Sequence record: NC_048195.1
Source: Escherichia phage vB_EcoM_WFC
Strand: one strand, 5' to 3'
Length of the DNA stretch: 64,000 bases
Shown: piece after piece, positions 695-64,000 of the stretch
Numbering within the stretch: the stretch's first letter is position 1
Layout of the letters: each line of letters starts with the position of its first letter
The notes under the pieces: model-generated
Database searches by the model: none
The model's input: the letters and a program-made list of their open reading frames with translations, nothing else
Told to the model about the DNA's origin: nothing
Translations under genes and position numbers: made by a program

Positions 695-768
695 ATTACC
701 TCCGGTTTTGAGTTAATATGATTATAACGCAGAGTCTCAGAAAGGCAAACTTTTTGTGAATTTTAATC

Positions 769-795: not shown

Positions 796-841
796 GAAAG
801 ATCACCCTTTATCCACTACTAAGCTGGAATCATAATTTTAC

Positions 842-2332: not shown

Positions 2333-2335
2333 CAA

Positions 2336-2575
2336 TTAAAGCATTCCGTGCTGAAGGTCTAGTTTTCTTGCAGCAAATGACCTGGCACGGAATCGCTTAC
2401 CCGCTCTTACTGCCTGCCGAATCTTCTTTTGCATACACTTACGGTCAAAATCGTTGCGGTCAACGGCTTCGAGCAAATCCCGACGCAAAGCACCTAGTGT
2501 CGCCTTTTCGGATAATTCTACGCCCAGCGCGGCTGCAACGTCTTTCAAAACATCGAGTTCGGTTAACGTTCTCAT
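2336..2575 (-). CDS. small basic protein with N-terminal helix-extension-helix (Rho_N/SAP-like) motif
   Basis: 79 aa; LTELDVLKDVAAALGVEL pattern then Arg/Lys-rich tail; second gene of a two-gene minus-strand unit inside the + strand structural block. Confidence 0.4.
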   Translation of the reverse strand: MRTLTELDVLKDVAAALGVELSEKATLGALRRDLLEAVDRNDFDRKCMQKKIRQAVRAGKRFRARSFAARKLDLQHGML

Positions 2576-2988
2576 TTGATGATCCCCTTGATGTCTGATT
2601 CTGCCATAAAGATTGGAGTGCCGCCGCCAGGAACAATCGAGCGCGTTACTTTGTCGAACATATCGTTCTCTTCAACTTGAATACGATAAAATTTATTTTT
2701 GGATGAAGATGGGCACAATCCAATAAATTTACCAATGCCGCGAACGCATTCATCTTCAAAGTATACTGTTTCACCTTGAATGGATTCGATGTTTTCAACC
2801 GGATACACCTTGCGACCTAAAAGCCATTCATCCATGGTCGCCTGCAACACGTTTCGCGCATCCAAAATCCAAGGGTCAACTGTGGCACCTTCATATCGCG
2901 CAGCAGTGGCTTTTGCCAGCTCTTCATATTCGCATACGTTTACTACTTCGCCTTGATGAAGGACGACAAATACAATTGTTGTGCTCAT
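2572..2988 (-). CDS. hypothetical protein (138 aa)
   Basis: Overlaps the downstream ORF by 4 nt (operon-like); AT-rich promoter-like region at 2989-3117. Confidence 0.4.
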   Translation of the reverse strand: MSTTIVFVVLHQGEVVNVCEYEELAKATAARYEGATVDPWILDARNVLQATMDEWLLGRKVYPVENIESIQGETVYFEDECVRGIGKFIGLCPSSSKNKFYRIQVEENDMFDKVTRSIVPGGGTPIFMAESDIKGIIK

Positions 2989-3150
2989 TTCAATCTCCTT
3001 TCGTTTGGTTAACTAAAATATAACTCAAAATGATACAAAAGCAAAATATTTTATGAACTATTTATGATTACTATACATATCATTTGCTTACAAACACATG
3101 AATATTTATAATATAGATTGATTCCCTTTCACTGTCAGGTGGCGTTAACA

Positions 3151-5526
3151 ATGAAAATTCTTGGCATAAAACTCTGGGAGAAGACGCAACCAGAAGCCGA
3201 ACCAGCGGAGATGCCGCCAGGCGACCCATTGGCACCGTTTGAACGCCTGGAAAGGCGCGGCAGCGGTCAACGCTGGGATAAGACCGAAAGCAACCGCCCG
3301 ACCTTTAAAACCGTTGATGACTTTCCTTTATATGAGCCTGATATCAACGGGGACGGTGTTGCAATCATCAAAGGTCGCTCAGTAGATTCAGCAACCGTAT
3401 CCAAAAAAGTTATGGATAATGCTTTGAAGAACATCAGTTCAGAAGGGCAGGTTAATCCATACACAGTACCTATTCAGTTGCAAAACTGGTACTTATCGCA
3501 ATCATTTATCGGATATCAAGCTTGCGCCATCATCGCGCAGCACTGGCTGGTGAACAAGGCTTGTTCCATGGTAGGCCGCGATGCGGTCCGTAAAGGCTGG
3601 GAAGTCAAATCCAGTTCTGAGTCCGAATTATCAGTGCAGGCCAGCGAACGCCTAAAGCAAATTGATAAAGAATTTAATATCAAAGAGCACTTAGTTGAAG
3701 CCGAACGATTCAAAAATATTTTTGGTATCCGCGTCATCATATTTGATGTGCGTAGCGATGACCCAGAATACTACAGTAAACCTTTTAACATTGATGGTGT
3801 GACAAAGGGGTCTTATAAGGGGATCATTCAGGTTGACCCTTATTGGATGATGCCATTTCTGACGTCTGAAAACACCGCCGACCCTGCTTCACAGCACTTT
3901 TATGATCCAGAATACTGGGTGATCAGCGGACAACGTTATCATCGCAGCCACCTCATCATATTGCGCAACGATGAGCCAGCTGATATTCTTAAGCCGACTT
4001 ACATCTACGGCGGCATTCCTCTAACTCAGCAGATTTATGAACGCATCTATGCCGCTGAACGTACCGCTAACGAAGCACCATTGTTGGCGATGTCTAAACG
4101 TACAACGACACTACGGACCGACGTTGACAAGGCGATTGCCAATGAGCGGTCTTTTGCCGAACGCCTGATGATGTGGATTAAGTACCGCGACAACTATGCT
4201 GTTAAGGTACTTGGCCAAAAAGAAGAAATGGACCAGTTCGACATCAACTTGTCAGACTTCGACAGCATCATCATGAACCAGTACCAGCTGGTGGCCGCAA
4301 TCGCAAAAGTTCCGTCGACCAAACTGCTTGGGACTTCGCCAAAAGGCTTTAACGCCACTGGTGAATTTGAGATGGTCAGCTATCACGAAGAGTTGGAAAC
4401 GTGCCAGCAGCATGACCTGACAAAAATTCTCGACCGCCATTACAAAATCCTTCTCAAATCAGAAGGGGTGGAAGTCGACGTTAAGGTTGCATGGGAACCA
4501 GTTGGCTCACTTACTGCTACTCAACTTGCAGAAATCAACGACAAGCGAGCTAACACTGGCAAAACTCTCATTGATGCTGGCGTCATTTCTCCTGATGAAG
4601 AGCGCGACCGCATCAAAGACGACAAAAACAGCGGTTACAACCGTCTGCCGGAAGATGCAGCAGAAGAAACCCCAGGGATGTCTCCAGAGAATATGGCATT
4701 GCTTGGCAAGTCTGCTGGTGAAGTCCTGCAAGGTAAGGCTGATATTGAACAGGCAAAAGCTGATGTCGTTAAGATGGGCGGCCAGTTCTATAGCGAGACT
4801 GGTATTATGCCAGAAGGTGCCGCGCGTGGTGAGTTGGCGGAAAACCCTGACAGAGCACCTGTCGAAATTAACATGGACGATACCGATGATGAATCAAACC
4901 ATCAGGTTGATGTCCTAACGCAGTTGAAAGAAGGTCTGGAGGGTATTGCGGATTACTACCTGAAAGAAGGTCAGGATGTGGATTTTGACCCTCAAAAAGA
5001 TTCACGGTCGGTGCAGCCGTCTACCCTTCCAAGCGTCAAAGGTAATGTCGTAAACTTACGACACAACGTTGGCGAGATGGACGCAGCATCATTACCTAAG
5101 ATGAAGTTGCACGGAATGATTCTTGGGATTGAGAATCCTCGCAACAGCATCCGTAGAGGAAATAGCCTTGACGGTGAATGGGCAGTCAAGATGCCGCACC
5201 ACTACGGATTCATCAAAGGCACCAAGGGCGCGGACGGCGATGAAGTCGACTGCTTTGTTGGCACAAATCTGAAGTCGCCGAAGGTCTTTATCGTGAACCA
5301 AAACGATAACTACTCTGGCGAGTTCGATGAACACAAGTGCATGCTTGGATTCGATTCAGCAGAAGAAGCAAAAGAAGCTTATCAGGCATCATTTGGTAAC
5401 GGTTGGAACGGATTCGACTCAATCCACGAATTAGATGTGAACTCATTCAAAGAGTGGTTGAAGGGTGATTGCTCTCAAGCATACGGAGCACTCAATAATC
5501 CTACTAATTCACCGAAGCAAGGTTGA
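3151..5526 (+). CDS. portal protein with C-terminal inorganic-pyrophosphatase-like domain
   Basis: About 790 aa immediately after the terminase gene; ATG at 3151 is preceded by AGGTGG (the ORF track starts at TTG 3118). The final ~120 aa contain HYGFIKGTKGADGDEVDCFVG, which fits the family I pyrophosphatase signature D-[SGDN]-D-[PE]-[LIVMF]-D-[LIVMGAC]. Confidence 0.65.
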   Translation: MKILGIKLWEKTQPEAEPAEMPPGDPLAPFERLERRGSGQRWDKTESNRPTFKTVDDFPLYEPDINGDGVAIIKGRSVDSATVSKKVMDNALKNISSEGQVNPYTVPIQLQNWYLSQSFIGYQACAIIAQHWLVNKACSMVGRDAVRKGWEVKSSSESELSVQASERLKQIDKEFNIKEHLVEAERFKNIFGIRVIIFDVRSDDPEYYSKPFNIDGVTKGSYKGIIQVDPYWMMPFLTSENTADPASQHFYDPEYWVISGQRYHRSHLIILRNDEPADILKPTYIYGGIPLTQQIYERIYAAERTANEAPLLAMSKRTTTLRTDVDKAIANERSFAERLMMWIKYRDNYAVKVLGQKEEMDQFDINLSDFDSIIMNQYQLVAAIAKVPSTKLLGTSPKGFNATGEFEMVSYHEELETCQQHDLTKILDRHYKILLKSEGVEVDVKVAWEPVGSLTATQLAEINDKRANTGKTLIDAGVISPDEERDRIKDDKNSGYNRLPEDAAEETPGMSPENMALLGKSAGEVLQGKADIEQAKADVVKMGGQFYSETGIMPEGAARGELAENPDRAPVEINMDDTDDESNHQVDVLTQLKEGLEGIADYYLKEGQDVDFDPQKDSRSVQPSTLPSVKGNVVNLRHNVGEMDAASLPKMKLHGMILGIENPRNSIRRGNSLDGEWAVKMPHHYGFIKGTKGADGDEVDCFVGTNLKSPKVFIVNQNDNYSGEFDEHKCMLGFDSAEEAKEAYQASFGNGWNGFDSIHELDVNSFKEWLKGDCSQAYGALNNPTNSPKQG

Positions 5527-5527
5527 T

Positions 5528-6379
5528 ATGGCTTTTAAAGCTTCGAAAAAACGTGAACGCCGCTCACCCGATAGAATCGGGCGCGGCAGTCCGATAATCC
5601 CATCAAACGCTATTGCGATGGCCTACCGTCGTGAGATGAAAGGTCTTTGCTATGCGATGATTGATGACTATCAGGCAGGCATTTCAGAATGGCTTGACAA
5701 GAAGCAGGTGCAGAAGTTTTTTGCGCAAGACTCTGCTGATTCGACATTCCAGACCCTTATGAAACGGCTGCAACTGAAATGGGCAAAGGCGTTTGCACGT
5801 GTTGGGTCGAAGATTGCCGCTGATTTTATCAAATCGGTCGAAAAGGGTGCCACTTCTGCTACATTCGCAAGCCTTAAGTCCGCAGGCATAGAAGCGCCAA
5901 AGGCCACATATAACAAATTCGTTGAGAACACTCTTAGAACAAGCGAGAAGTTTAACACGACTCTAGTGACTAAGGTCGGCGAGGATATTCACAACAGAGT
6001 GTACGAAGCAGTCATGCTTTCGCTGACTTCTCCCGACCCAGCCCAGCAAGGCACGTCAGGCATTCAGGCGGCATTGCGAAACGTAAAACACTTCTCTGCA
6101 AAGAGAGTCGACTTGATCGCTAAAGACCAGACAAGCAAATTGTATTGCGTTCTAAGCGATGAAAGGATGCGCCAGAATGGAGTCGAAGAATTTGAGTGGG
6201 CGCACTCAGGAGCAGGAAAGGAGCCGCGAATCTCTCATGAACACGTCGACGGAATGAGATTCAAACTTGATGACAAGCGCCTATGGGAAGTTGGCGGCGA
6301 ATTGAAGTTCAAAAAGGGTGACATCGGTCCTCCTGGATGGGCAATACACTGCAAGTGCAGAAAAATACCAATCATTTGA
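5528..6379 (+). CDS. head morphogenesis protein (Mu F / SPP1 gp7-like)
   Basis: 284 aa directly after the portal gene (ATG 5528 adjacent to the portal stop); sequence pattern remembered for minor head proteins of this family. Confidence 0.7.
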   Translation: MAFKASKKRERRSPDRIGRGSPIIPSNAIAMAYRREMKGLCYAMIDDYQAGISEWLDKKQVQKFFAQDSADSTFQTLMKRLQLKWAKAFARVGSKIAADFIKSVEKGATSATFASLKSAGIEAPKATYNKFVENTLRTSEKFNTTLVTKVGEDIHNRVYEAVMLSLTSPDPAQQGTSGIQAALRNVKHFSAKRVDLIAKDQTSKLYCVLSDERMRQNGVEEFEWAHSGAGKEPRISHEHVDGMRFKLDDKRLWEVGGELKFKKGDIGPPGWAIHCKCRKIPII

Positions 6380-6386
6380 GGTCATT

Positions 6387-7307
6387 ATGACGATACCAAT
6401 CAGCACGTTTCCTCTATCTGGACAAACGCCAGTATTGCCTGCTGTATATGCTAACGGTTTGGCGATTGTTTCAGAATTTACATCCGATAAAAACCTGATT
6501 GTTCCATTGAGTCCGCCATTGGCGTCTGGATACAATTCAGTTGGTCAATTCTTTATGATCGGTAATGATGGCGATTCTACCAGCAAGCCGAATCTGACAC
6601 TTTCAGTTCCCAAAATGAACATAACAGACGTGCAGACTGGTTTAACTGCATCTACAATCACCATCGCTTTTGGAGAAGCAGTGATTATAGGAATGGAGTC
6701 TGGAGGGTCAAAGAATGCTGTCGCCGTTAAAGTGGTCAAATCAAGCGGCAACCAATACACGTTACCAGCGGCAACGGCTTCTGTTCTCGGCGGCGTCAAA
6801 ATAGGAAGCGGAATAAGCGTCGCAGGTGACGGTACAATTAGCGTTACTCAATACTCATTGCCGATTGCGTCAGCATCTACTTTAGGCGGCGTAAAGGTCG
6901 GTACAACTCTATCAATTGATGGTTCCGGTGTGCTTAACGCAGCGGAAAGCACCGTCCAGAATGCCACGAACAGTGTTAGCAATCCTCCAACCACTTTGGT
7001 TAATCTGGCGACCTTAAACCTTCCTGCAGGAAAGTGGCTTGTGACGGCAAGTCAGTTGACTGTCGCGACAGCAGGAATTCAAGCGAATACCGGAATTACA
7101 GCCAAATTGTCAACAAGCGATTCAGATATTACGGATGATGCATTTACGATGTCAGCTGGCATTCGGGCTGCAGGTCGTTTCGGCGGCAATATTCCAACAA
7201 AGATAATCACTCTTGCCGCGCCTGGCAACGTGTATCTAAACTATCAATGCACAGAGGCGTTGACATCTACCGTTTACGGACAGATCACCGCAATCAAGCT
7301 GAACTAA
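6387..7307 (+). CDS. structural protein with tandem fibre-like repeats
   Basis: RBS GAGGT before ATG 6387; internal repeats TLPAATASVLGGVKIG / SLPIASASTLGGVKVG typical of phage fibre or decoration proteins. Confidence 0.55.
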   Translation: MTIPISTFPLSGQTPVLPAVYANGLAIVSEFTSDKNLIVPLSPPLASGYNSVGQFFMIGNDGDSTSKPNLTLSVPKMNITDVQTGLTASTITIAFGEAVIIGMESGGSKNAVAVKVVKSSGNQYTLPAATASVLGGVKIGSGISVAGDGTISVTQYSLPIASASTLGGVKVGTTLSIDGSGVLNAAESTVQNATNSVSNPPTTLVNLATLNLPAGKWLVTASQLTVATAGIQANTGITAKLSTSDSDITDDAFTMSAGIRAAGRFGGNIPTKIITLAAPGNVYLNYQCTEALTSTVYGQITAIKLN

Positions 7308-7317
7308 AGAGGAAGTT

Positions 7318-7455
7318 ATGCAAAAGATTATTCAGTCACGTTATGTTAAAGTGCGAAATATTAATTGCAACTCTTTGCTTTCTTGGAAATGGGCTGTTTA
7401 TGACTCAATGCTGATTGGCGTTTTAGTTGCAGGAGTGCTATTTAATATCCACTGA
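7318..7455 (+). CDS. small hydrophobic protein (45 aa)
   Basis: ATG 7318 preceded by AGAGGAAG RBS; C-terminal hydrophobic segment MLIGVLVAGVLF; not in the ORF track (below its size cutoff). Confidence 0.35.
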   Translation: MQKIIQSRYVKVRNINCNSLLSWKWAVYDSMLIGVLVAGVLFNIH

Positions 7456-7496
7456 ATTCATCGGCAAAGGATTGCCGCGAGTTTTATACGTATAAT

Positions 7497-7760
7497 GACG
7501 TATCATACGTATCAAGTAAGTTATTGTTTTCAAAAGAATCTTACGGATGATACGGATGATACGCGTTGCCGCCGTACTATATAGGAATTCAAATAAATTA
7601 ATTTAAAATTATATATCTAATTTAATTTTATTTTTTTATAAACTCTTATATATGAAAAGTATCCGTATCATCCGTATCATCCGTAGCACACCAGTGATAG
7701 CGCGGCTTATACACCGATACGGATAAAAATACGCCTCATTTTATCCGTATCATCCGTATC
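7497..7760. repeat. iteron-like CCGTATCAT repeats in both orientations flanking an AT-rich core (region A)
   Basis: ACGTATCATACGTATCA (7497-7516), CTTACGGATGATACGGATGATACG (7540-7563), ATCCGTATCATCCGTATCATCCGTA (7661-7685), TATCCGTATCATCCGTATC (7742-7760); AT-rich core about 7575-7650. Homologous to region B at 60018-60347. Confidence 0.6.
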
Positions 7761-7818
7761 ACACTAATAAAGGCGCGGCTATATCGGTTGTTATACATAT
7801 TCAAACCATAATTATTGT

Positions 7819-7847
7819 TTGCCTAAGTTTTTTTCATTAGATATAAT
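7819..7847 (+). promoter_or_regulatory. sigma70-like promoter upstream of the scaffold/capsid genes
   Basis: TTGCCT (7819-7824), 17-nt spacer, TATAAT (7842-7847), then GAGGGTGG RBS and ATG 7871. Confidence 0.45.
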
Positions 7848-7870
7848 ACACAATACTTATTTGAGGGTGG

Positions 7871-9289
7871 ATGCGAATGCAAACGGCACGCGAAATTGAC
7901 AAAAATGGATTCTTGACGATTATGGGTTGTCCAATTTCGTCATTTGGCATTTTTGATTATTCTGCTGGTCAAGTTGGTCTTGATGGTGATCCGAATCGCA
8001 TCGTAAAAGTCTATCGCCCTGAGTCAGCGGTGAAAGACCCCGAAGCGATAGATTCATTCAAAAATATCCCTTTCATCGACAATCACGAAATGCTTTCTGG
8101 ATTTGAAGGTGATGAGGATAACACAGCACCCGAAGAGTATGGAGTTGATGGCGTTCTGACTGGCAATGTTTATTATGACAAGCCATGGATGCGCGGCGAC
8201 CTTAAAGTGTTTAGCCGTCGTCTGAAGAAGGCCATTGATTCTGGAAAGGTTGACTTGTCTTTGGGCTATGACTGTGAATTCATCATACAGTCTGGAGAGT
8301 TTGACGGGCAGCCGTATGAAGTGGTGCAGACAACTCTTCGCGGCAACCACATTGCTCTCGTGGACGTTGGTCGAGTACCAGGTGCACGGGTGCTGGATGG
8401 TCGTTGCTTTGACCATCTTTGTTTGACGACTGTAACACCATCCAACGAGGATTTAGACATGCCAAAACCGTTAAAAGGTAAAGCGCGTGATAATGCTGTT
8501 GAACAGCTGAAATCACTGATCCCTGCGCTCGAACAATTTCTGAACGAAGAGAGTACTGAAGCTGCTCATCAGGATGAAGTTGAAGTGAAAGCAGAAGAGA
8601 AGGACTCAACCGAAAATCGTGAAGAAGTAATGGTTGATCCAGAAGTCAAGGCAGAAGCAGAAGAAACCCCAGAAGGTGAAGAGAAGTTTGAAGTTGAAAC
8701 TGAATCTCACGCTGGCGGCGAACTTCCGCAATTGATCAGCCAAATCGAAGCACTTATTGCAAAACTGAAAGGTGGCGCGGTAGGTGATGAAGAAGAAGTT
8801 GAAGCCGAAGTCAAAGACGAAGAAGTTGAAGTCAAGGCTGAAGATGTATCACCTTGCGACAAAGCTGAAGATGTGGTTAGCGGCCTGCAAAACAGCAACG
8901 TAAAGGGGGCTTCGGTCGAAAAAGATGACAAACCGACAAAAGCGGCGAAAGCGTCGCCAGGTCCAGCAAAAGGGGAACACTCAATGGCATCTGATTCAGC
9001 AGTTGCTGCTTTCTACGCTGATTCTGCTCGTAAGAATAGCCTCTACCAGCGCCTGTCTAAAGTTGTTGGTGCCTTTGATCATGCAACTATGGACTCCAAG
9101 TCCGTAGCGAAATATGGCGCTAAAAAGTTAGGCTTGAAGTGCGTTGATGGTGCTGAGTTTGACGTGGTGGATAATTATCTGCGCGGCGTTGAGCACGGTC
9201 AGAAACAGCGTGTAGTCGCAAAACAAAAGGCCGCTGCGGATTCTGCAGCAACTGACGAAGCATTTGAAGCTTGGTTGAAAGGGGAATAA
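7871..9289 (+). CDS. scaffolding-like protein (N-terminal domain plus acidic Glu/Lys-rich region)
   Basis: 472 aa; conserved-looking N-terminal 190 aa followed by long EVKAEE-type acidic low-complexity segment; sits between head morphogenesis and capsid genes. Confidence 0.55.
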   Translation: MRMQTAREIDKNGFLTIMGCPISSFGIFDYSAGQVGLDGDPNRIVKVYRPESAVKDPEAIDSFKNIPFIDNHEMLSGFEGDEDNTAPEEYGVDGVLTGNVYYDKPWMRGDLKVFSRRLKKAIDSGKVDLSLGYDCEFIIQSGEFDGQPYEVVQTTLRGNHIALVDVGRVPGARVLDGRCFDHLCLTTVTPSNEDLDMPKPLKGKARDNAVEQLKSLIPALEQFLNEESTEAAHQDEVEVKAEEKDSTENREEVMVDPEVKAEAEETPEGEEKFEVETESHAGGELPQLISQIEALIAKLKGGAVGDEEEVEAEVKDEEVEVKAEDVSPCDKAEDVVSGLQNSNVKGASVEKDDKPTKAAKASPGPAKGEHSMASDSAVAAFYADSARKNSLYQRLSKVVGAFDHATMDSKSVAKYGAKKLGLKCVDGAEFDVVDNYLRGVEHGQKQRVVAKQKAAADSAATDEAFEAWLKGE

Positions 9290-9291
9290 AC

Positions 9292-9909
9292 ATGACTTTC
9301 CAAACTAGTGTAGGCCGTCAATATACAACTGGCTTTCCTGGCGACATCGTTCGCGACGGCCCACAGCGTGGGAAGCCAGGCCGAATCGTTAGCGCCAACG
9401 ACGGTGCAAACGTAAACGCCATCAGCCGTGTGTTTGGTTTTAAAGCCGACGTATCATTAATGGGTACTGGCCAAACCAAAACCTTGGGCGCGCAGGACTT
9501 TGAAGTTGAACTGGGCGGCACCAATTACTATGGCATCCTTGGCAACAGCAAGCGTTACGCTCTGTATGGCAACTCTACTGGTCCTTTGGGTGCCAGCATG
9601 GTTCTGCCTCAATATAGCGAAGGCGAGTTCTATGATATGTGCACGGGCCTCGTAGTTGAAGTATTCAACCCAAGCACCAGTCCGCAGACGCTGAACTACG
9701 GCGACCTGCTCGCTTATGTACCTAAAGGCATTTCCAGCGGTAACAACCCGAACAACTTGCCTATCGGTGCAATTATCGCCTATACTGGCTCACTGCCAAC
9801 TGGCATGGTTGCCATTCCAGGCGGTATCGTGATTGACCCGACTGCTATTGCCCTTTCCGGCCCAAGCGTCCAGTCTTCCACTTATACCATTGTACAATTG
9901 ACTCGTTAA
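9292..9909 (+). CDS. structural protein (205 aa)
   Basis: ATG 9292 right after the scaffold stop; Gly/Pro-rich; lies between scaffold and capsid candidates. Confidence 0.5.
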   Translation: MTFQTSVGRQYTTGFPGDIVRDGPQRGKPGRIVSANDGANVNAISRVFGFKADVSLMGTGQTKTLGAQDFEVELGGTNYYGILGNSKRYALYGNSTGPLGASMVLPQYSEGEFYDMCTGLVVEVFNPSTSPQTLNYGDLLAYVPKGISSGNNPNNLPIGAIIAYTGSLPTGMVAIPGGIVIDPTAIALSGPSVQSSTYTIVQLTR

Positions 9910-9923
9910 TAGGCAGGTGAATA

Positions 9924-11063
9924 ATGACTCGCATTAGCCAAACACACTCTCGCCTCCCAGCGAGCAAGGTGCGCCCTTTTGATATGCAATCCGTTACTGA
10001 CGCGGCTGTTTCCCAGCTTGCTCGTATCGGTATTGTGTTTGATTCCGCGATTGTGCGTGATCAGATTGAGCACTTAAACCGTGCAGGCGCTTTCCGCGTA
10101 GGTGACGCCGCGTTTACTGCGCCGCAGACTACTCCGTCAATCCCGACCCCGTTGCAGTTCCTGCAGCAGTGGTTGCCTGGCTTCGTCAAAATCATGACCG
10201 CTGCTCGTAAAATCGACGAGCTGGTTGGTATTGATACCGTTGGTCAGTGGGAAGATGCAGAAATCGTTCAGGGCATCGTTGAACCAGCTGGCACCGCAGT
10301 TGAATATGGTGATTTCACCTCTATTCCTCTGGCAAGCTGGAACGTAAACTTTGAACGTCGTTCTATCGTTCGTGGCGAAATGGGCATGGCAGTTGGTATG
10401 CTGGAAGAAGGCCGCGCATCCGCTATGCGTCTGAACTCCGCAGAAACCAAGCGCCAGCAGGCTGCTGTATCTCTGGAAATCATGCGTAACGCAATCGGCT
10501 TCTATGGTTGGTACAACGGGAACAACCGCACATTCGGCTTCCTGAATGATCCAAACCTGCCAGCAGCGATGACTTCCAACACCACTTCCGGCTGGGCTAC
10601 TGCGACTTTCCAACAGGTAACTGCAGACATCCGTTTGATGGTTCGTCAAATTCGTGTGAACTCTCAGGACCAGATTGATCCAGAGAAAGTTGACATGACT
10701 CTGGCGCTGCCGACTAACTCTATCGATTGGCTGTCCAACACCACTGACTTCGGTATTTCTGTACGTGACTGGATCACCCAGACTTATCCGAAGATGAAGA
10801 TCAAATCTGCACCGGAACTCAACGGCGCACTTGGCAGTGACCCGACTTTCTTGAACGTGGCATACCTGTACGCCGATCACATCGATTCCTCAATCGATGG
10901 TTCAAGCGATGATGGTTCCGTATTCAGTCAGCTGGTTCAAACCAAGTTCATGACTCTGGGCGTTGAAAAGCGTGCTAAGAGCTACGTTGAAGACTACGCA
11001 AACGCAACAGCAGGCGTTCTGCTCAAGCGTCCGTTCGCAGTCGTCCGTATGACTGGTATTTAA
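9924..11063 (+). CDS. putative major capsid protein
   Basis: 379 aa; strong RBS AGGCAGGTGA; position after scaffold; followed by a stable hairpin. Family assignment is by gene order and memory, not a search. Confidence 0.6.
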
Positions 11064-29678: not shown

Positions 29679-30217
29679 CGCACATCCTGTGTCTTAACAT
29701 TACCTGAAGCATCTCTTAAGGGCAGTGGATAGTAGGCCATTTGGTAGTCTGATACGCCTTCAACATGATAAAACACGATTACGTCTTTGCTGTTGATGAG
29801 CATGTTAACGACATCTGATTTATCTTCTGGAGTGAGTATGAGTGCGCCGCCTGTCCTGCTGTCTACTGCAACAGGGTATGTCTTGTCGACAAGGCCGCTG
29901 TCCAATGTATTATACCTGACAACGATTTCAGCGGCATCAACTTTTGCAATTGACATTCCGAACACAAACGAAACGACTTGGCGACCGCGATCATTCATTA
30001 CGCACATCTTTTCCTTATCAAACCTTTTCTTTATCACATCATATTTGTTCCAGCAAAATTCGAACGATTGGCCGTTGTTAAAATATCTCGTTAACACTTT
30101 GGCATTACTATTTGGCGGCGTAAACATACTTTCAGCCGCTGCACTTTTGGTGAAGAACAAGACTGTCAGCATAGCCATGATGGTGATCAAAACAATCTTT
30201 AAAGTTTTCGATTTCAT
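29675..30217 (-). CDS. secreted protein with N-terminal signal peptide
   Basis: 180 aa; MKSKTLKIVLITIMAMLTVLFFTKSAAA then polar mature part. Confidence 0.45.
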   Translation of the reverse strand: MKSKTLKIVLITIMAMLTVLFFTKSAAAESMFTPPNSNAKVLTRYFNNGQSFEFCWNKYDVIKKRFDKEKMCVMNDRGRQVVSFVFGMSIAKVDAAEIVVRYNTLDSGLVDKTYPVAVDSRTGGALILTPEDKSDVVNMLINSKDVIVFYHVEGVSDYQMAYYPLPLRDASGNVKTQDVR

Positions 30218-30393
30218 TATAATTCACCTTTTGATTACGAATATTAATAGTATAGGCCGAAGGTTTTGAAAGTAAATAAGGCGAAAGGTAAATAAAAGAA
30301 AAGCCGGAGATTTCCGGCTTTATGTATACACTGTATATTAAATTCTATAAAACGACGCGATAGATTATCCGCACCAATTATTTATCTAGTGTC

Positions 30394-31356
30394 TTAAAAA
30401 TACTCCATATCGGTAATATCACGGAAGCATTTATACAAAGCAGAGCGCGGCACGTCGACGATGCCAAAGTTAAAGAATTTATACGTTAGGTATTTATCGC
30501 GATAGTTCTCGCGATTCTCCCAAAGCATTTTACGCTCTGCCATAGGCATTGAACCAGCGGAGACGCGGAAAGGAATCATTTCACCTTTCTCATCCACATA
30601 TTTTGGATTGACGACTACGAATGAGCCAAGGTATCCTTTCGCAACTAAACCTTCAGCCTCTTTTGAACGCTTGGTGCGACCCAATTCGTCAATGAATGCT
30701 TCGTTGTTATTCTCCATCATCTCAACGAAGTCTATGATCAACCCTTCTTCATCGGTCCACGGCTTGTCCTTCCACACATCACGTGACTTCGGCGTCGCGC
30801 GCCCATGCTTATATTTGCCCGTCCAAGACTTGCCATACAAGCCTTCATATCCAAGCTGGTCTGCTTCGATTTGCATCGCCGCGTACTGTTCCATATTTTC
30901 GATGTTTCGATATTCGAGAGCGCGAAGGAATGGGCGTCGACCATGGTTGATGAGATGTTGATTAACTTCAGCAACTCTAGCTCGATAGTTTGCATAACGC
31001 TTTTCAAAAGGCAGATCAGGGTCGCTGAAGTCATCAAACACCCACCATGTAAAGTTAGTGATTGCATCAGTATTCATGCATGCAGTATAGGCCTGTTGCA
31101 TGACGTTCTTATCATTTGGATTGCCGTCGATTAGCTCTCCATCAAGTCCGTGAATTAGTTCACCCAAAAAGAGGAACTCTTTTTTGATTTGAACGTTGCG
31201 CAACGGCATGCCGGAAGTGCCCATTGGCAAGTTGTCATACGCCATTGCACGTATGCCATCGACCTTGAATGACAGTCCGCAAGGCAGCGGCACGTCCTCG
31301 CCGCGCTCGATAATCTGCTTACGTTGGCAACCCTTCATTGGTTTTAATGCTGTCAT
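30394..31356 (-). CDS. ATP-dependent DNA ligase
   Basis: 320 aa; nucleotidyltransferase motif I FKVDGIRAM (KxDG) and motif IV-like EGLVAKG. Confidence 0.8.
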   Translation of the reverse strand: MTALKPMKGCQRKQIIERGEDVPLPCGLSFKVDGIRAMAYDNLPMGTSGMPLRNVQIKKEFLFLGELIHGLDGELIDGNPNDKNVMQQAYTACMNTDAITNFTWWVFDDFSDPDLPFEKRYANYRARVAEVNQHLINHGRRPFLRALEYRNIENMEQYAAMQIEADQLGYEGLYGKSWTGKYKHGRATPKSRDVWKDKPWTDEEGLIIDFVEMMENNNEAFIDELGRTKRSKEAEGLVAKGYLGSFVVVNPKYVDEKGEMIPFRVSAGSMPMAERKMLWENRENYRDKYLTYKFFNFGIVDVPRSALYKCFRDITDMEYF

Positions 31357-58174: not shown

Positions 58175-58579
58175 ATGAATCAACATAAAGAACGTTTAGA
58201 AGAACTGGTGCGCGGCGAGCTTTACGGCGGCGATGACTCACTGTTCAAGTTAAGCGATGCGGTTGTCAACGAGTACGTGCACGGACTGGTCGACCCGCAA
58301 GGCCGTTTCCCTTATCCGCGAGATTACTGCAACGACATCACAGCAGCTTGGCCCGTGATGCTTGCCAATGATGTCAGCGTCGTGCGAAACTGCGGCAACA
58401 AAGAACCAAACCGTGACTACTCGGCTTACGTCGCGTTGGACGCCATGGACATTGCATCATTTAAATGCAGCGGCAGCCACGACAACCCGTTACGCGCCGC
58501 TATGCATGTAATCATTAAGTTGCACGTGAGCAAGGGCGAAGGTGCAGTGGCAACCGTTTATGAGAAGGTGAAATTATGA
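58175..58579 (+). CDS. hypothetical protein (134 aa)
   Basis: First ATG taken (ORF track starts at GTG 58172). Confidence 0.45.
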   Translation: MNQHKERLEELVRGELYGGDDSLFKLSDAVVNEYVHGLVDPQGRFPYPRDYCNDITAAWPVMLANDVSVVRNCGNKEPNRDYSAYVALDAMDIASFKCSGSHDNPLRAAMHVIIKLHVSKGEGAVATVYEKVKL

Positions 58580-58794
58580 CCGATAAACAATACGCAGTCG
58601 GGCAACGTGACATCGAGCAACTCGACGAGGGCGGCTATTATACTCGCCACATCTATGCAATGACGCATGAAGGACTCTACAGCAAGTCGGACATTGCCGC
58701 TGAACTGGCCCATCGTGACTTGCAAATTGACCTTCTCAAGATAGAAGTGCAAAACTTACGCAACACCCTGTTAAATACCTGGAGCTTAAAATGA
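58576..58794 (+). CDS. hypothetical protein (72 aa)
   Basis: GAAGGTG RBS. Confidence 0.45.
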   Translation: MTDKQYAVGQRDIEQLDEGGYYTRHIYAMTHEGLYSKSDIAAELAHRDLQIDLLKIEVQNLRNTLLNTWSLK

Positions 58795-59192
58795 TCAATC
58801 GATTTAACTGCATCGTCAACAAGGGGATGGCGGTCAATGAGGATGGTCCTTGGATTCACTATGAGGACTATGAATCACTGCTCAAGCTTAATGAGTCGCT
58901 AACAAAAGAGATTGAGCAATACCGCGAGCGCATCAAAGCCGCTGAAGATGTTATCAAGCTTTTTAGCGAGGCTGTTGAGAAATACAAGGAGCGCAACGTA
59001 CCGATTAAGGAGGAAGCGTGGACCGTGTGGTTTGGTGGTGAGAATCCGGTGCCTGGGAAGATGGTTGAGTTTGAATTACTCAACGGTTATAAATCAAAAG
59101 GTGCTGTTCCTTCGGATAGTTTGACATGGGATAAAGTCACAAGCCCGACTGGTGCAAAGATTGTTGCTTATCGGGTCGTTAAGGAGGGGTGA
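58791..59192 (+). CDS. hypothetical protein (133 aa) with C-terminal WxGGxNPVPGK module
   Basis: GGAG RBS; C-terminal WTVWFGGENPVPGKMV ... YRVVKEG. Confidence 0.45.
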   Translation: MINRFNCIVNKGMAVNEDGPWIHYEDYESLLKLNESLTKEIEQYRERIKAAEDVIKLFSEAVEKYKERNVPIKEEAWTVWFGGENPVPGKMVEFELLNGYKSKGAVPSDSLTWDKVTSPTGAKIVAYRVVKEG

Positions 59193-59725
59193 TGGGTAAC
59201 GATGCAGGATGGGGCAAGCCGCGATACTCAAAACTTGCCCACTACTTTGACAACGGCGAGCAAATCAGCTTGTGCGGTAAATTCAACAAAGGCAATACAG
59301 AGTTGACCGATGCTCAAGAAATGGAATCAAGTTTTACAATTGGTGATTGCTCTAAGTGCAGAAAGGCATTATATGAGTTATTAACTCTAAGGGGATTGAA
59401 AGCGGCAAAATCAAGGGATGAATGGGTCATCAACGTCTGTGAAGGGAATCCAGAATTAATGGATGAATTGCTGAAAACAGATGCCGTTAATGCCATTTTT
59501 AAAAGGCATTATAAAACTTGTATGCGTTACAAGATGAATGATAATATTATTTTTATGGTATTATCTTATTCAAGGAGCACAATGGACGTCAAAAAGCTTC
59601 GACAATATCGTCACAAGGTAATGTGTGAATTGCGCCGTTTAGGAGTGACTGTTGATAATAATGTCATTAAAACGGAGTTAAAGAAGCGTGATAAAAGGAA
59701 TGGTGACTGGAAGGTCAGCAGATAA
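59192..59725 (+). CDS. hypothetical protein (177 aa)
   Basis: AAGGAGG RBS; last gene of the early array. Confidence 0.45.
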   Translation: MGNDAGWGKPRYSKLAHYFDNGEQISLCGKFNKGNTELTDAQEMESSFTIGDCSKCRKALYELLTLRGLKAAKSRDEWVINVCEGNPELMDELLKTDAVNAIFKRHYKTCMRYKMNDNIIFMVLSYSRSTMDVKKLRQYRHKVMCELRRLGVTVDNNVIKTELKKRDKRNGDWKVSR

Positions 59726-60017
59726 AGAACGTTGATTTGTGTGTTTTGAAGAATGGAATGTGTGCAATGGGTCGCTTTATGCGGCCTTTTGTTGTTTGGG
59801 TCGTGTTTTGCGATGGAATAATTATGAGGTTGTGTTTTATTTATTAATTGTGCGGAAATATTTAGAAATATATATAAACAGGATTGTTAATATTTTAATA
59901 GTGTATGGCTATTGGTCCGTGGTGTTCGTTAGATTCTATCTATGGATTGGATTTTCTTGGGTCGTGAAACGTGGTTTTGAACACATTTGATACGCCTAAA
60001 ATACGGTTAAAAATTAA

Positions 60018-60347
60018 GCGTATCATGGCTGCAGGCCGCGCCGTTCCTGGATTCCTATTTTCAAAAGTGGTACACCCTTACGTCATGATACGTCATGGTT
60101 TTCTATCCGTAAGAGTGTACAGCCCTTGCCGCGCCTGGCTTGTACATTAATCTTACGGATGATACGGATAAAACTGAGCATCGTTATATATAGAATTCGA
60201 AAAATTAATTAACTCCATTTTAAAAACATTTATATTAATTTTTTTCATATCCTCATACTTATGTTAATTTATATATTTAACGTATTATCCGTAAGATATA
60301 AGTAAAAACAAAGACTTGCGGCAATACGGATGATACGTCATGATACG
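60018..60347. repeat. iteron-like TACGGATGATACG repeats flanking an AT-rich core (region B)
   Basis: CGTCATGATACGTCATG (about 60080-60097), CTTACGGATGATACGGATA (60152-60170), ATCCGTAAG copies near 60104 and 60287, AATACGGATGATACGTCATGATACG (60323-60347); AT-rich core 60180-60280. Confidence 0.6.
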
Positions 60348-60512
60348 CTTCGACCAGCCAGCAGCGGCTAAGTCATTGATTTGCATAACAAGCGGCAAAA
60401 GGGATGGATTTCTTTTATACGTATCAAACAGTACACCACGCACCACGGTCCGCAATCCACGCAGCATTATGATTTGTGTACTTTTATAGCCATAATGAAC
60501 ATCAATCTGCAC

Positions 60513-60541
60513 TTGAATATAATGTCCATCCATTGTATAAT
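60513..60541 (+). promoter_or_regulatory. sigma70-like promoter upstream of the TerS-like gene
   Basis: TTGAAT (60513-60518), 17-nt spacer, TATAAT (60536-60541). Confidence 0.45.
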
Positions 60542-60561
60542 TCACACTATTAATTTGCACT

Positions 60562-61050
60562 ATGGGATTTTGCACTATGAGTCAAGATTATGTAGCGATG
60601 CCTGAAGACTTTGAAGACCCGCGATTCGCAGAGCACAATCAGGCTTTATTCGATGAGTTCATTGACCTTGTTATTCAGGGCCATGACATGCGCGCAGCTT
60701 TTGCACTAGTATTTGGAATGGAAGTTGCAACGGATAACTACACTGGCCAGCGAATCCTTTGCACGCAACGCAATCCATACTACAAGATGCGCTTCAAAAA
60801 GCGTATGGAAGAGATGCCACTCAAGGATTTGTGGAGCGTAAAAGGTGCAATTCACAATTTGGTCAAGCTTGTGCGTGATCCAGAAGTCGCGGCGTCAGCC
60901 AAGCTTAATGCTATTCGTGAACTGAATATCATCTACGGCATCACGATGATTGATGAAAACGGCAATAGTAAAATGGGCCGTTCCATGGACGATTTCTACA
61001 AGGATTTCGGAGAGGCGGCCAAAGAAGGCGAGCAATTTTCCCGCCACTAG
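60562..61050 (+). CDS. putative terminase small subunit (HTH-type)
   Basis: 162 aa; GHDMRAAFALVFGME ... QRILCTQRNPYYKMRFKKRMEE and later KLNAIRELNIIYGI resemble small-terminase patterns from memory; alternative ATG at 60577. Confidence 0.45.
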   Translation: MGFCTMSQDYVAMPEDFEDPRFAEHNQALFDEFIDLVIQGHDMRAAFALVFGMEVATDNYTGQRILCTQRNPYYKMRFKKRMEEMPLKDLWSVKGAIHNLVKLVRDPEVAASAKLNAIRELNIIYGITMIDENGNSKMGRSMDDFYKDFGEAAKEGEQFSRH

Positions 61051-61052
61051 CC

Positions 61053-61448
61053 AATTTGCACTATAAAACGGCCCTAGAACACATTTTCTCCACTTCTAGG
61101 GCCATCGGTAATACGACGGGGAAGGTTGCAACCATAAACGCGTTAGAAAGTGTATTATTATAAGTCATCTTTTAGTCACTTTACGTAACAATTTACGACC
61201 TTCAACCGTCCAATCGAACGACTCCACCAGCAGATTCGCACTATAACCTAAGACGATGCGCCCTTTCTCGTTATCGACCCGCCAACAAGTCTCGAATAGC
61301 ATTCGATTTGCACTATTAACTATTGCCGCAACTCGCGTAGGATAAGCGCAATTTGCACTATGGTCGTAAAGGGATAAGGTGCGACCACTTCCGATGGACA
61401 ACGTAGCGATGAGAATAAGCGTATTCATAAGCCACCAATTTGCACTAT
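61053..61448 (+). repeat. array of same-orientation (A)ATTTGCACTAT motifs
   Basis: Copies at 61053-61064, 61233-61244 (TTCGCACTAT variant), 61305-61316, 61350-61361, 61437-61448; further copies at 60552-60563, 60569-60578, 61734-61745, 61748-61759, 62021-62032. Confidence 0.6.
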
Positions 61449-61478
61449 GAAAAGCGACCCCGAAGGGCCGCCATTCGA

Positions 61479-62105
61479 TTAGATAATCTGGAAGGTATAG
61501 GACTTGTTGCCGAACTCGAAGTTCAAGCGTCCAGCTTCTTTAAGCTTCATGCGGAAGCGAATGTGCTTGCTATCCGGTAAGCCCAGCGCGGCGAACGCTA
61601 CGCGGACCGATTTGAACTCGCCTACACCCTCGACCATAACGCCGTTACGGGTAAGACGCTTTTGCGCCACTTCCTTATTATCCCAACTTTTTGCAATGCC
61701 TTCGCTATTCGAACGGCGATGGGAAGGAGTTCCATTTTGCACTACGCAATTTGCACTATCGTTTAAACCGCTCTTAACGAAGGCTTCATACTCTTCGTCG
61801 GTCATCGCGTCGAGTTCTTCCTGCGTCGGCTCGGCCTTTTTAACGACCGCACGCGCCTTATGCGTTTTTACATCGCTGGACACTTCCTCGCGAGACTTCG
61901 CGTCGGGGATGGGCGATTCGTTGGACGGCTCATCGAGCGCGTTTAAGGACTCGATTAACGCTATTACGCGAGTCTCGGCGGTCCGGCGGTCCGCAAATTT
62001 TTTAATCGGCTTCGAACCGGAATTTGCATTATAAAATGCAACGAGGTCGGCGGTCTTAGTTGCGATAACGTCGCCGCTAGTCGAGAAACGATTTAAGCTA
62101 ACCAT
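61479..62105 (-). CDS. hypothetical protein (208 aa)
   Basis: Minus-strand ORF in the CpG-rich block; second gene of an operon driven from about 62570. Confidence 0.45.
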   Translation of the reverse strand: MVSLNRFSTSGDVIATKTADLVAFYNANSGSKPIKKFADRRTAETRVIALIESLNALDEPSNESPIPDAKSREEVSSDVKTHKARAVVKKAEPTQEELDAMTDEEYEAFVKSGLNDSANCVVQNGTPSHRRSNSEGIAKSWDNKEVAQKRLTRNGVMVEGVGEFKSVRVAFAALGLPDSKHIRFRMKLKEAGRLNFEFGNKSYTFQII

Positions 62106-62185
62106 AATGAACTCCTATTTGTTAGGGCGCTAGGCGCGAAAGAATTTTATTAAAGCGCCGCGCACGACGCTCTAAAAATCCTCTC

Positions 62186-62500
62186 TTACTCTTCGTCATC
62201 TTCGATTAATTCGAGGGCGAAGGCGTAAGCTTTGCTATCGTAATTAACTAAAACGGCGAGTTCGAACTCGTTAATAAACGCCGTTTTACCGCATAAATTT
62301 AATTCCGCATCGACTTCGAAGAATCCGTTTTCGTCGCGCTCTAAGCGAGAAGCAGCGAGTTGCTCGATTACCGTCGCGTCGTTAATTTCTTCGCCTAAGC
62401 GAACGCCGGAGAATTTCGCGAGAATTTCGCCGTAAGTAAGCGTAACGCCCTGGACTTCGGCGGTTGCGTTTTCGAGGGTAAAGCGGGTAACGATAGCCAT
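62186..62500 (-). CDS. hypothetical acidic protein (104 aa)
   Basis: AGGAG RBS upstream on the minus strand; CpG-rich codon usage. Confidence 0.45.
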   Translation of the reverse strand: MAIVTRFTLENATAEVQGVTLTYGEILAKFSGVRLGEEINDATVIEQLAASRLERDENGFFEVDAELNLCGKTAFINEFELAVLVNYDSKAYAFALELIEDDEE

Positions 62501-62568
62501 AATAAACTCCTAGTTGGGAGAGGCGTTAACGACCTATTCGTTAACTCATCCCGTCCCGATATGAGTAC

Positions 62569-62596
62569 ATTATAATATAGTGTAGAAAAAAGTAAA
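62569..62596 (-). promoter_or_regulatory. sigma70-like promoter (family copy 1, minus strand)
   Basis: On the minus strand: AAAAAGTGC TTTACT, 16-nt spacer containing TACACT, TATAAT. Confidence 0.5.
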
Positions 62597-62640
62597 GCAC
62601 TTTTTCGATAAAAATGCGATAAATTATTTTATCTTTTTTC

Positions 62641-62668
62641 TTTACTTCTTCGTACACTCGCGTATACT
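62641..62668 (+). promoter_or_regulatory. sigma70-like promoter (family copy 2)
   Basis: TTTACT (62641-62646), 16-nt spacer TCTTCGTACACTCGCG, TATACT (62663-62668). Confidence 0.5.
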
Positions 62669-62724
62669 TGTTTATATCGAGACGGGCGATGGCCCTTTCT
62701 TCTACTAGCATCGGGAGCTTTATT

Positions 62725-63027
62725 ATGACTACTTTAATCTCTTCCATCCTTACTTACGACGAAGACCGCTTAACCGTTCGCTCTCTTATCGCCGCCGTTA
62801 ACGCGGAACTAGAATCTAGCGCCATTAAGGTCCGCGCGGTCGCCTTCATCGGCCTTTCCTTCGACGATATGAAGTATGCCGAACGTAGCGCCATCCGCTT
62901 CGCGAAGACCGACGACGAAGCCGTTACCCTTATCGAGACGGTTACGCCGCGCGGCGAAGCGTTAATTATCGTCGAGTATATCGACGTAGAAGGCGATAAA
63001 TCTTATAAACATTTTATCGCAGAATAA
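62725..63027 (+). CDS. hypothetical protein (100 aa)
   Basis: ATG 62725 preceded by GGGAG; the ORF-track TTG start at 62668 lies inside the promoter; CpG-rich. Confidence 0.45.
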   Translation: MTTLISSILTYDEDRLTVRSLIAAVNAELESSAIKVRAVAFIGLSFDDMKYAERSAIRFAKTDDEAVTLIETVTPRGEALIIVEYIDVEGDKSYKHFIAE

Positions 63028-63039
63028 CGAAAAAAGTGC

Positions 63040-63068
63040 TTTACTTCTTCGTACACTAAGACTATAAT
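63040..63068 (+). promoter_or_regulatory. sigma70-like promoter (family copy 3)
   Basis: AAAAAGTGC TTTACT (63040-63045), 17-nt spacer TCTTCGTACACTAAGAC, TATAAT (63063-63068). Confidence 0.5.
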
Positions 63069-63135
63069 GTTTTATATCGAGAGGGGATGAGGTAGCGAAT
63101 AGGTCGCTACCCTCCCGACTAACTAGGAGAATATT

Positions 63136-63426
63136 ATGATTACTTTAGCCGCTATCCGTTCCGCTCGCGTCGAAACTTCCGAAAACTCTAACGTATTTGG
63201 CGAAAAACTTAAAAACGTTTATCTTTTTAACGTAGATGCGACTATCGAGGAGCTTCATAGTCCTATCGATTTTAGCGAATTTACGGAACTCGAAGAGGAA
63301 GATATTTCTACCTTCCGCGTTACTATCGAAGGCAAGGTTTATTTTGCTACGGAGTTCGGCGGCGAATATCTCGCGGTATCCGAAGGCGAAGGCCGTTACT
63401 CTTTCTTTAAAATCGTTTCCTTATAA
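63136..63426 (+). CDS. hypothetical acidic protein (96 aa)
   Basis: AGGAG RBS; CpG-rich; followed by a terminator. Confidence 0.45.
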   Translation: MITLAAIRSARVETSENSNVFGEKLKNVYLFNVDATIEELHSPIDFSEFTELEEEDISTFRVTIEGKVYFATEFGGEYLAVSEGEGRYSFFKIVSL

Positions 63427-63446
63427 TACCCATCCGTTACTAATAG

Positions 63447-63470
63447 GCCGCGCTTAGTCGCGGCTTTTCT
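63447..63470 (+). terminator. intrinsic terminator
   Basis: GCCGCG CTTAGT CGCGGC hairpin followed by TTTTCTT. Confidence 0.6.
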
Positions 63471-63592
63471 TCGTCCCTATCTCGATGCGCTTCTCCGCGA
63501 AAACTCCTTTATCCTTCCCTTCGTCGTCGCATAATCTTCGTCGAGATGCGCCTTAGTTCGCATAACAGGTATTACGTTAAATGGAGAACATC

Positions 63593-63668
63593 GCGTAAGT
63601 CGTTGTTTTATATAGACACCTATATCGGACCGTTAGCGAGGGTCGCGTAAGTCGTTGTTTTATAAAGG
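63593..63668. repeat. direct repeat ATCGCGTAAGTCGTTGTTTTATA (2 copies)
   Basis: Two copies about 53 nt apart in a ~550-nt stretch with no convincing ORF; further short direct repeats (AATCATTAGCYTTCGAAT) near 63789-63854. Confidence 0.4.
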
Positions 63669-64000
63669 CGCAAAACTTTCCCTTCGTTCCGAACTAAAAC
63701 GAGGAATATGCCGACCCTTCGCCCGAAAATAGTACGCATGCGATATTACCGACATCTAGAATAATCCCTCCCGATATTATTACGCGCTCAATCATTAGCT
63801 TTCGAATCATTATGCTGCATACTATTATGCGCCAAATCATTAGCCTTCGAATTGTAACGCTGGAAACTGTAACGTCGATTGATTATTGCGTTCGTGTGGT
63901 TTTTAGGACATGGGTCTTTTGGTGCGTTTTGCTACTTGATGGAATTTGCAGTACACTAATCAAAATACGACACATTTGGTCCACTAACTTTTCAAAGAAA

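Follow-up and report, generated by a model that had tools for sequence, protein, structure and literature searches.

Early-gene cassettes in terminal repeats are already known from phages such as T5 and SPO1. In SPO1 and other Herelleviridae a host-takeover module of small early genes with strong, host-recognised promoters lies in the terminal redundancy, and in T7, where the end of the genome that leads carries strong host promoters, the early, small and very acidic protein Ocr (gp0.3) is a DNA-mimic anti-restriction protein. Here we describe a cassette of putative immediate-early genes in Escherichia phage vB_EcoM_WFC (NC_048195.1). It is found at 61 to 64 kb of the 64,000-nucleotide stretch that was analysed (the window), lies within the direct terminal repeat (DTR), and consists of DNA from which the dinucleotides CA and TG have been largely purged.

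The pre-early region of T5 and BF23 provides the closest parallel. It is situated inside a direct terminal repeat, comprises two inverse units with strong host-type promoters, specifies mostly small proteins annotated without function, and has a repeat-rich, non-coding stretch at the inner border of the repeat (PMC10644984). The same layout is found in Wifcevirus, where divergent units with host-type promoters lie in the repeat and its inner border is again non-coding and rich in repeats. Restriction, CRISPR and Ssp systems act against T5 only through sites in the region that enters the cell first (PMC10644984). There are, however, differences. The repeat is 10 kb in T5 and 3.7 kb in Wifcevirus, which is a myovirus; Pfam and PHROGs revealed no homologues of T5 A1, A2 or dmp among the cassette proteins; no DnaA boxes were found in the Wifcevirus repeat, unlike that of T5; and CA/TG is normal in the T5 repeat (rho 0.94), whereas it is purged here. 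The SPO1 module belongs to a phage of a Gram-positive host, with a much larger repeat and unrelated sequences. The Ocr region of T7 lies outside the terminal repeat, the Wifcevirus proteins showed no resemblance to Ocr in sequence or, for g96, in fold, and we know of no dinucleotide purge in the T7 early region.

Our preferred interpretation, held with about equal parts of belief and doubt, is that the Wifcevirus locus is an immediate-early cassette in the DTR, kept almost free of CA/TG by selection, the products of which are protective and the DNA of which is the first to work in the cell, while still unprotected. In the following sections we discuss the evidence for each part of this interpretation, together with the alternatives.

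Location in the terminal repeat

The window represents a Wifcevirus, a myovirus of E. coli. The block at 61051-63500, to which an earlier note made from the sequence alone had drawn attention, has counterparts of 90-98% identity in 27 phage records, all of them Wifcevirus myoviruses of E. coli or Shigella, the closest being HermannAdler/Bas98. The DTR assigned by PhageTerm in phage Mansfield (1-3673) maps to 60217-63919 of the window; the WFH record carries homologous sequence at both ends (second copy 67583-71283), and its authors describe a terminal repeat of ~3.7 kb (PMC6563267). These three sources agree that identical sequence is present at both ends of the virion DNA. The flagged block makes up the right two-thirds of the DTR, and the small terminase gene lies in the left third. 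The main features are as follows.

60217..63919, no strand: direct terminal repeat, ~3.7 kb, of which the virion DNA carries a copy at each end
~61701..63800, no strand: core CA/TG-purged domain, of roughly the same extent as the three putative early transcription units and the non-coding border on the right
61453..61472, minus strand: intrinsic terminator ending the leftward unit, after g208 (-18 kcal/mol, z=-3.7, U run; annotated in WFH)
61479..62105, minus strand: g208, basic two-domain protein of 208 aa, pI 8.9 (phrog_4730, uncharacterised)
62186..62500, minus strand: g104, acidic ORFan of 104 aa, pI 4.07, in a variable slot
62505..62562, minus strand: P1 leader, with 5' hairpin and Shine-Dalgarno sequence AGGAG
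62569..62596, minus strand: predicted promoter P1, TTTACT-16-TATAAT with upstream A-tract, 10/12 consensus
62641..62668, plus strand: predicted promoter P2, TTTACT-16-TATACT, 9/12 consensus
62725..63027, plus strand: g100, acidic ORFan of 100 aa, pI 4.65, present in 27/27 records, 84-100% identical
63040..63068, plus strand: predicted promoter P3, TTTACT-17-TATAAT with upstream A-tract, 10/12 consensus
63074..63135, plus strand: P3 leader, with conserved 8-bp hairpin (loop AAUAG) and Shine-Dalgarno sequence AGGAG (-21.3 kcal/mol, z=-2.3)
63136..63426, plus strand: g96, acidic ORFan of 96 aa, pI 4.40, with invariant N-terminus and mosaic, variable centre
63445..63466, plus strand: intrinsic terminator ending the rightward units (fold; annotated in WFH and Mansfield)
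63470..63919, no strand: non-coding, repeat-rich inner border of the DTR, 450 bp, with two repeat families

Dinucleotide composition

The block had been described as CpG-rich and compositionally distinct, and the dinucleotide statistics show a sharp shift. The observed/expected ratio of CpG is 1.6-2.2 in 61-64 kb against ~1.1 elsewhere in the window, and that of TpA 1.0-1.2 against 0.66. The symmetrised rho of CA/TG falls to 0.36 in 61701-63890, compared to 1.18 in 1-59700. In the same segment CG stands at 2.12 versus 1.09 and TA at 1.17 versus 0.66 in the rest, the other pairs being little altered. This segment lies at a dinucleotide distance of 0.248 from the rest of the window, where background windows of the same size give a mean of 0.047 (sd 0.020) and a maximum of 0.137. 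CA/TG occurs 2-8 times per 100 bp in the domain and 14.7 times in the rest of the window, and the GC content of the block is unchanged. Because any transition that destroys CA/TG creates CG or TA, the CpG richness is a by-product: the CpG excess that was first noticed is real, and the underlying signal is CA/TG depletion, CpG being secondary. The limits shift as well. The strong domain extends from ~61700 to ~63800, beyond the 63500 first proposed, and rho in 61051-61700 takes no more than an intermediate value of 0.79.

Genes of either orientation are as poor in CA as in TG on their sense strand, and non-coding DNA is likewise depleted of both. Avoidance is strongest where A, C or G follows CA, with TCAC, CCAC and TCAG absent where 10-19 copies are expected. 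CAT/ATG, and above all GCAT, is tolerated, and TCGA, CGCG and CTAG are enriched three- to sevenfold. The choice of a wobble pyrimidine follows the next base. Ahead of a codon starting with G the C:T ratio is 122:19 (background 1511:1985), ahead of one starting with A it is 16:63 (background 1454:953), and ahead of one starting with a pyrimidine it is 51:50. The three small genes lack CTG, TTG, GTG, TCA, CCA and ACA codons altogether, not one of their 27 leucine codons being CTG or TTG, and His, Gln, Cys, Trp and Met together account for 3.0% of residues instead of 10.7%. The purge thus works at the level of the dinucleotide and not of the codon, and the cassette constitutes a natural case of functional proteins nearly without His, Gln, Cys, Trp and internal Met. 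A lack of primase sites (CTG) was considered as a cause and rejected, nearly all CA/TG contexts being depleted.

Restriction-site avoidance in phages is a short-oligonucleotide bias under selection (PMC6286503, as cited within PMC8594841). Elsewhere such avoidance targets specific palindromes, whereas here one dinucleotide pair is affected and the palindromes TCGA, CGCG and CTAG are enriched; the Wifcevirus purge further differs in being confined to a 2-kb domain, from which whole codon classes and five amino acids have been removed.

A local mutation bias, caused for instance by a deaminase or repair pathway with context specificity that works on the repeat or on strongly transcribed DNA, would produce precisely the enriched pairs, since transitions away from CA/TG yield CG and TA, and the stationary state described below would also be compatible with a mutation equilibrium. 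Against this, the repeat is of normal composition in its left 1.5 kb, the depletion is strand-symmetric in genes of both orientations, and the unchanged GC content would demand C-to-T and A-to-G routes in balance. The amino acid content has been reshaped, and the promoters retain conserved CA/TG. We regard such a bias as quite improbable.

Maintenance of the purge

The region was aligned from 15 Wifcevirus genomes. In all 15 the core has 3.6-5.0 CA/TG per 100 bp, at a divergence from the window of up to 14%. Substitutions creating CA/TG make up 18.5% of 531 events in the core, against 33.2% expected from the region's own mutation spectrum (p=5e-14), and creations and losses are in balance at 98 versus 99. 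Two flanking segments of the same alignment showed no deficit of new CA/TG. Accessory or alternative ORFs that occupy the domain in other genomes are equally purged (2.1-2.8 CA/TG per 100 bp). Since the level has been kept in 15 genomes, new CA/TG arises at about half the expected rate, and other viral DNA is without the purge, the CA/TG-poor state is a stationary, actively held constraint and not a relic of foreign origin.

An extra ORF of 51 aa is inserted between g100 and P3 in RCIP0363 (4448-4731), and also in AV128 and ECO71P1; at 2.6 CA/TG per 100 bp it is as poor as its surroundings.

These data bear directly on the suggestion, made in the earlier note, that the block was acquired horizontally. 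An island from a donor with an odd dinucleotide signature, the composition being a passive relic, would explain why the block is so sharply unlike the rest of the genome and why its small proteins are without relatives outside the genus. The block is, however, in all 27 records of the genus rather than patchy in its presence, and a relic should drift to the genome norm, whereas CA/TG here is stationary and new CA/TG twofold under-represented. The g208 gene is ancestral, being syntenic with the small terminase gene in phage PB1 as well, and is nevertheless partly purged; nor did 509 kb of other viral DNA yield a donor with such a signature. Foreign origin is in our opinion very unlikely, the least probable of the explanations considered and one largely refuted already.

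In the complete genome of Bas98 the CA/TG-poor windows are confined to the repeat, as are the promoter core and the ATTTGCACTAT motif discussed below. The purge was not found in PB1, of the sister genus, where the lowest 1-kb rho is 0.70, in the T5 terminal repeat, in distant viral contigs with a g208 homologue (35-39% identity), or in 56 unrelated viral contigs (509 kb; 1-kb windows 1.11 ± 0.12, minimum 0.70). Wifcevirus contigs reach 1-kb rho values down to 0.27-0.32. The T5 repeat (1-10219) shows a CpG odds ratio of 1.31 versus 0.79 in the next 20 kb, with normal CA/TG, which is a milder and different compositional change in another early-gene repeat. While early genes in terminal repeats are known, an actively maintained dinucleotide purge is apparently undescribed: our search of the literature on CA/TG depletion in phages and on terminal-repeat early genes found nothing on this phenomenon, and we know of no report of a phage in which selection keeps a 2-kb domain clear of one dinucleotide pair.

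Promoters, leaders and terminators

Three near-identical σ70-like promoters had been noticed in the block, and all of them are confirmed at precisely the coordinates given. P1 to P3 have hexamers near TTGACA and TATAAT at a spacing within 16-18 bp, and share a 19-nt core for which 0.02 matches are expected by chance. They align through a common leader as far as the start codon. All three are retained in each of the 14 related genomes that cover the region, with the CA/TG inside the promoters conserved; promoters and leaders are almost invariant among genomes and the genes downstream variable. In IMG/VR, multiple matches to the promoter core were found in Wifcevirus contigs only, the remainder being single chance matches. 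The 8-bp hairpin is common to the P1 and P3 leaders, two of its stem pairs differing by compensatory changes. The result is two divergent units, g104-g208 and g100/g96, with a terminator at the end of each. A search of 59500-64000 against Rfam gave no match. At the inner border, two 25-nt repeats are found at 63591-63667 and a tandem pair of 45 nt at 63774-63863, and CA/TG remains low up to ~63800.

The proposal that this is a host-takeover cassette read early by host RNA polymerase stands in outline, given the DTR, the divergent σ70 promoters, the terminators and the T5-like border; that its transcription is early would follow from this context and from the analogy with known systems. The purge probably marks the DNA that is expressed first in the cell.

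The coincidence of purge and transcription units admits a constraint at the RNA level, under which UG and CA would be kept out of the early mRNAs so that these evade a host endoribonuclease or toxin, or for the sake of translation. All of the purged DNA falls within or just past the P1-P3 units, and CA and UG are equally low on every gene's sense strand. Such a constraint would, however, need to act on two unrelated RNA dinucleotides where one motif in duplex DNA explains both, and the non-coding DNA past the terminator is purged too. We know of no E. coli RNase with such a specificity, and rate a constraint on RNA as improbable. The removal of CA/TG might instead erase stray -35 (TTGACA) and extended -10 (TG) elements and binding sites of host proteins, so that only P1-P3 fire. 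TTGA/TCAA, TGTG/CACA and GTGA/TCAC are indeed nearly absent from the domain, and the -35 element of the real promoters is itself TTTACT, not TTGACA. The early regions of other phages, that of T5 among them, do without a purge, however, and a pressure of this kind seems insufficient to have altered the make-up of the proteins; there is in our judgement little to recommend this explanation, which we place on a level with the mutation bias.

Gene products

The ORFs are as first listed, and the three small proteins are acidic (pI 4.07, 4.65 and 4.40), which is to say small and strongly acidic in the manner of the DNA mimics Ocr and ArdA. The g104 gene occurs in 9 of the 27 records; most of the others carry in its place a 94-aa paralogue of g96 (33% identity, E=1e-7; Mansfield) or leave the slot empty, and g104 is missing from RCIP0319. 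Alleles of g96 are 61-76% identical and its family is fast-evolving. In a search of 5.8 billion protein clusters (~15 billion sequences) g96 was represented by 16 clusters and g104 by four, all from contigs of Wifcevirus size. Neither BLASTP nor hhalign linked g104, g100 and g96 to one another.

The family of g208 is large (832 representatives), with conserved N- and C-terminal domains, and in PB1 the homologue also adjoins the small terminase gene. The density of CA/TG in g208 is 4-6 per 100 bp near the 5' end and climbs to 10-11 near the 3' end. The gene is therefore ancestral, having been inherited vertically with the small terminase gene, and its 5' half has been drawn into the purged domain. 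No match to PDB sequences was obtained with g208, either singly or as a 43-member profile, and Pfam gave only scattered single weak matches on the 43 family members.

Pfam and PHROGs searches on the seven ORFs of the region returned only phrog_4730 (g208) and phrog_4783 (small terminase), the function of both being unassigned. The AlphaFold model of g96 (pLDDT 71.7, one of five, to be used with caution) found only its own orthologue as a fold match in PDB and BFVD, and that of g104 (pLDDT 44.9) was unusable. Remote homology and structure comparison, proposed in the earlier note as a check on the four proteins, thus disclosed no known inhibitor by sequence or, for g96, by fold. The small acidic proteins are plausible candidates for anti-restriction or anti-defence functions, and three or four tiny, fast-evolving proteins, of a genus reported to replicate at unusual speed, can be put forward as candidate broad anti-restriction or host-takeover factors.

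Proposed mode of action and restriction

As we envisage it, placement in the DTR would put a copy of the cassette within 3.7 kb of either genome end, and the host σ70 RNA polymerase would start at the three near-identical promoter-leader modules. From P1, transcription would proceed leftward across the acidic gene in the variable slot, here g104, and then the conserved basic g208 to the terminator; from P2 and P3 it would run rightward through the acidic ORFans g100 and g96 to the second terminator. The products would most likely serve host takeover or counter defence systems and so shield the rest of the genome, as in the T5 pre-early region. Selection at the dinucleotide level meanwhile keeps the DNA of these units almost free of CA/TG. 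Our best guess is that DNA (or transcripts) active before protection is established would thereby be cut poorly by a nuclease that recognises short motifs containing CA/TG, which might be either a host restriction enzyme or the phage's own host-shutoff enzyme.

The published restriction phenotypes can be compared with this scheme. Wifceviruses resist five of six systems, EcoKI, EcoCFT_I, EcoRI, EcoRV and EcoCFT_II, with no protection mechanism known, and are very sensitive to EcoP1_I, which was flagged as unexplained (PMC11990801). The window contains many sites, among them 20 for EcoRI, five for EcoRV and six for EcoKI. The DTR has none for EcoKI, EcoAI-like EcoCFT_I, EcoRI or EcoRV. Only CACAG and ACACA, each with a CA, fit the counts published for EcoCFT_II; CACAG is absent from the DTR (~5 expected), and the two copies of ACACA lie outside the core. 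The EcoP1I site AGACC, which is without CA/TG, is found five times in the DTR, in both orientations, and 4-7 times in other full-length repeats. Phenotypes and DTR site map are correlated across the six systems, although most of the absences are individually non-significant and only AGACC has more than one site. The pattern fits what a T5-like scheme predicts by analogy, and the site map offers an explanation for the published sensitivity to EcoP1I alone. The nearest EcoRI site is at 60193, 24 bp beyond the left DTR boundary, and the repeat is free of EcoRI sites in all 15 genomes.

Several points count against our interpretation. The joint absence of EcoRI, EcoRV, EcoKI and EcoAI sites from 3.7 kb, where ~1.8 are expected, has P ~0.16 and is not significant by itself. 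The EcoCFT_II site was deduced from published counts (93 in Bas98, 51 in Bas01) rather than read from the source. Bas99 and Bas101 have one EcoKI site in the core and yet are reported as resistant; a single EcoKI site on linear DNA may escape cutting. Because removal of CA/TG doubles the motifs containing CG or TA, the purge is not a general avoidance of restriction sites. Finally, none of the cassette proteins matches a known anti-defence protein in sequence (Pfam, PHROGs) or, for g96, in fold. Modification of the DNA at CA/TG was rejected as the source of resistance, since EcoRI and EcoRV sites are without CA/TG and resistance to these enzymes would be unaccounted for.

More tentatively, the purge may be a form of self-marking, by which the phage DNA that functions first is invisible to a nuclease reading a two- or three-base motif, be it a host defence or a phage enzyme. 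The phage would then owe its immunity to the avoidance of a dinucleotide, so strong as to govern both the codons used and the make-up of the proteins. This would account for resistance to all tested systems bar EcoP1I, the site of which, AGACC, is without CA/TG.

A narrower and rather unlikely version holds that an early nuclease of the phage destroys host DNA or RNA at CA/TG motifs, with the motif-free cassette surviving and the rest of the genome entering, or being protected, later. Consistent with this, the purge maps to the early units and affects both strands alike, and avoidance is strongest for CA followed by A, C or G while CAT/ATG is tolerated. The T5 pre-early region degrades host DNA, the escape of its own DNA being unexplained (PMC10644984), and a very short latent period has been reported for the Wifcevirus genus (PMC11990801). 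No nuclease domain was found in the cassette proteins, however, with Pfam and PHROGs or among the 43 members of the g208 family; CA/TG is normal in the other 64 kb, which would have to be protected in some other way; and the T5 repeat has no such purge.

To return to selection on a still unprotected cassette, some enzyme or process in the infected E. coli cell appears to read CA/TG, which could reveal a new defence or host-shutoff mechanism.

Flanking genes and minor features

The remaining features of the repeat are listed below.

60577..61050, plus strand: small terminase subunit gene (terS), inside the DTR (PDB 7uxe 'Small terminase', E=7e-34)
61066..61106, no strand: long hairpin between terS and g87 (-20.5 kcal/mol, z=-4.1; annotated as a terminator in WFH)
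61165..61428, minus strand: g87, basic ORF of 87 aa in the zone of intermediate composition, annotated in relatives
60540..62032 plus 63944, plus strand only: array of 13 ATTTGCACTAT-like motifs (up to 2 mismatches), assessed by a shuffle test

The product of terS is 41% identical to its PB1 homologue, and the gene is of normal composition (CA/TG rho 1.2-1.3); in PHROGs its only match is phrog_4783, a family without an assigned function. The hairpin at 61066-61106 is likely to be a bidirectional terminator. The number of ATTTGCACTAT copies was reached in none of 100 shuffles, and the array is conserved in 15 genomes. Copies flank and follow terS, and several lie antisense in g87 and g208, in the same frame each time (Ser-Ala-Asn). 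They may be binding sites for a protein, with the terminase (packaging) or g208 as candidates.

A 68-aa ORF on the minus strand (62541-62747) covers P1, P2 and the start of g100, and a shortened form is annotated in some BASEL records; it is probably not a real gene.

The 1.7 kb to the left of the DTR (58551-60216) is hypervariable among Wifceviruses, with an apparent identity of 55-70% in most pairs, unlike the DTR itself, which is 86-98% identical. It looks like a mosaic zone of accessory genes. Two similar structures, in which very AT-rich DNA lies between copies of TACGGATGATACGGAT and its complement, are present at 7480-7800 and 60120-60350, the second straddling the left boundary of the DTR at 60217. 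Both show a local excess of CpG and TpA at a GC content of ~33%, and they might serve as an origin, a terminase cutting site or a boundary signal. A further local CpG excess (observed/expected 1.8-2.25) is found at 30200-30600, an AT-rich intergenic stretch with a hairpin and convergent gene blocks on either side, which is probably a terminator region without relation to the purged domain.

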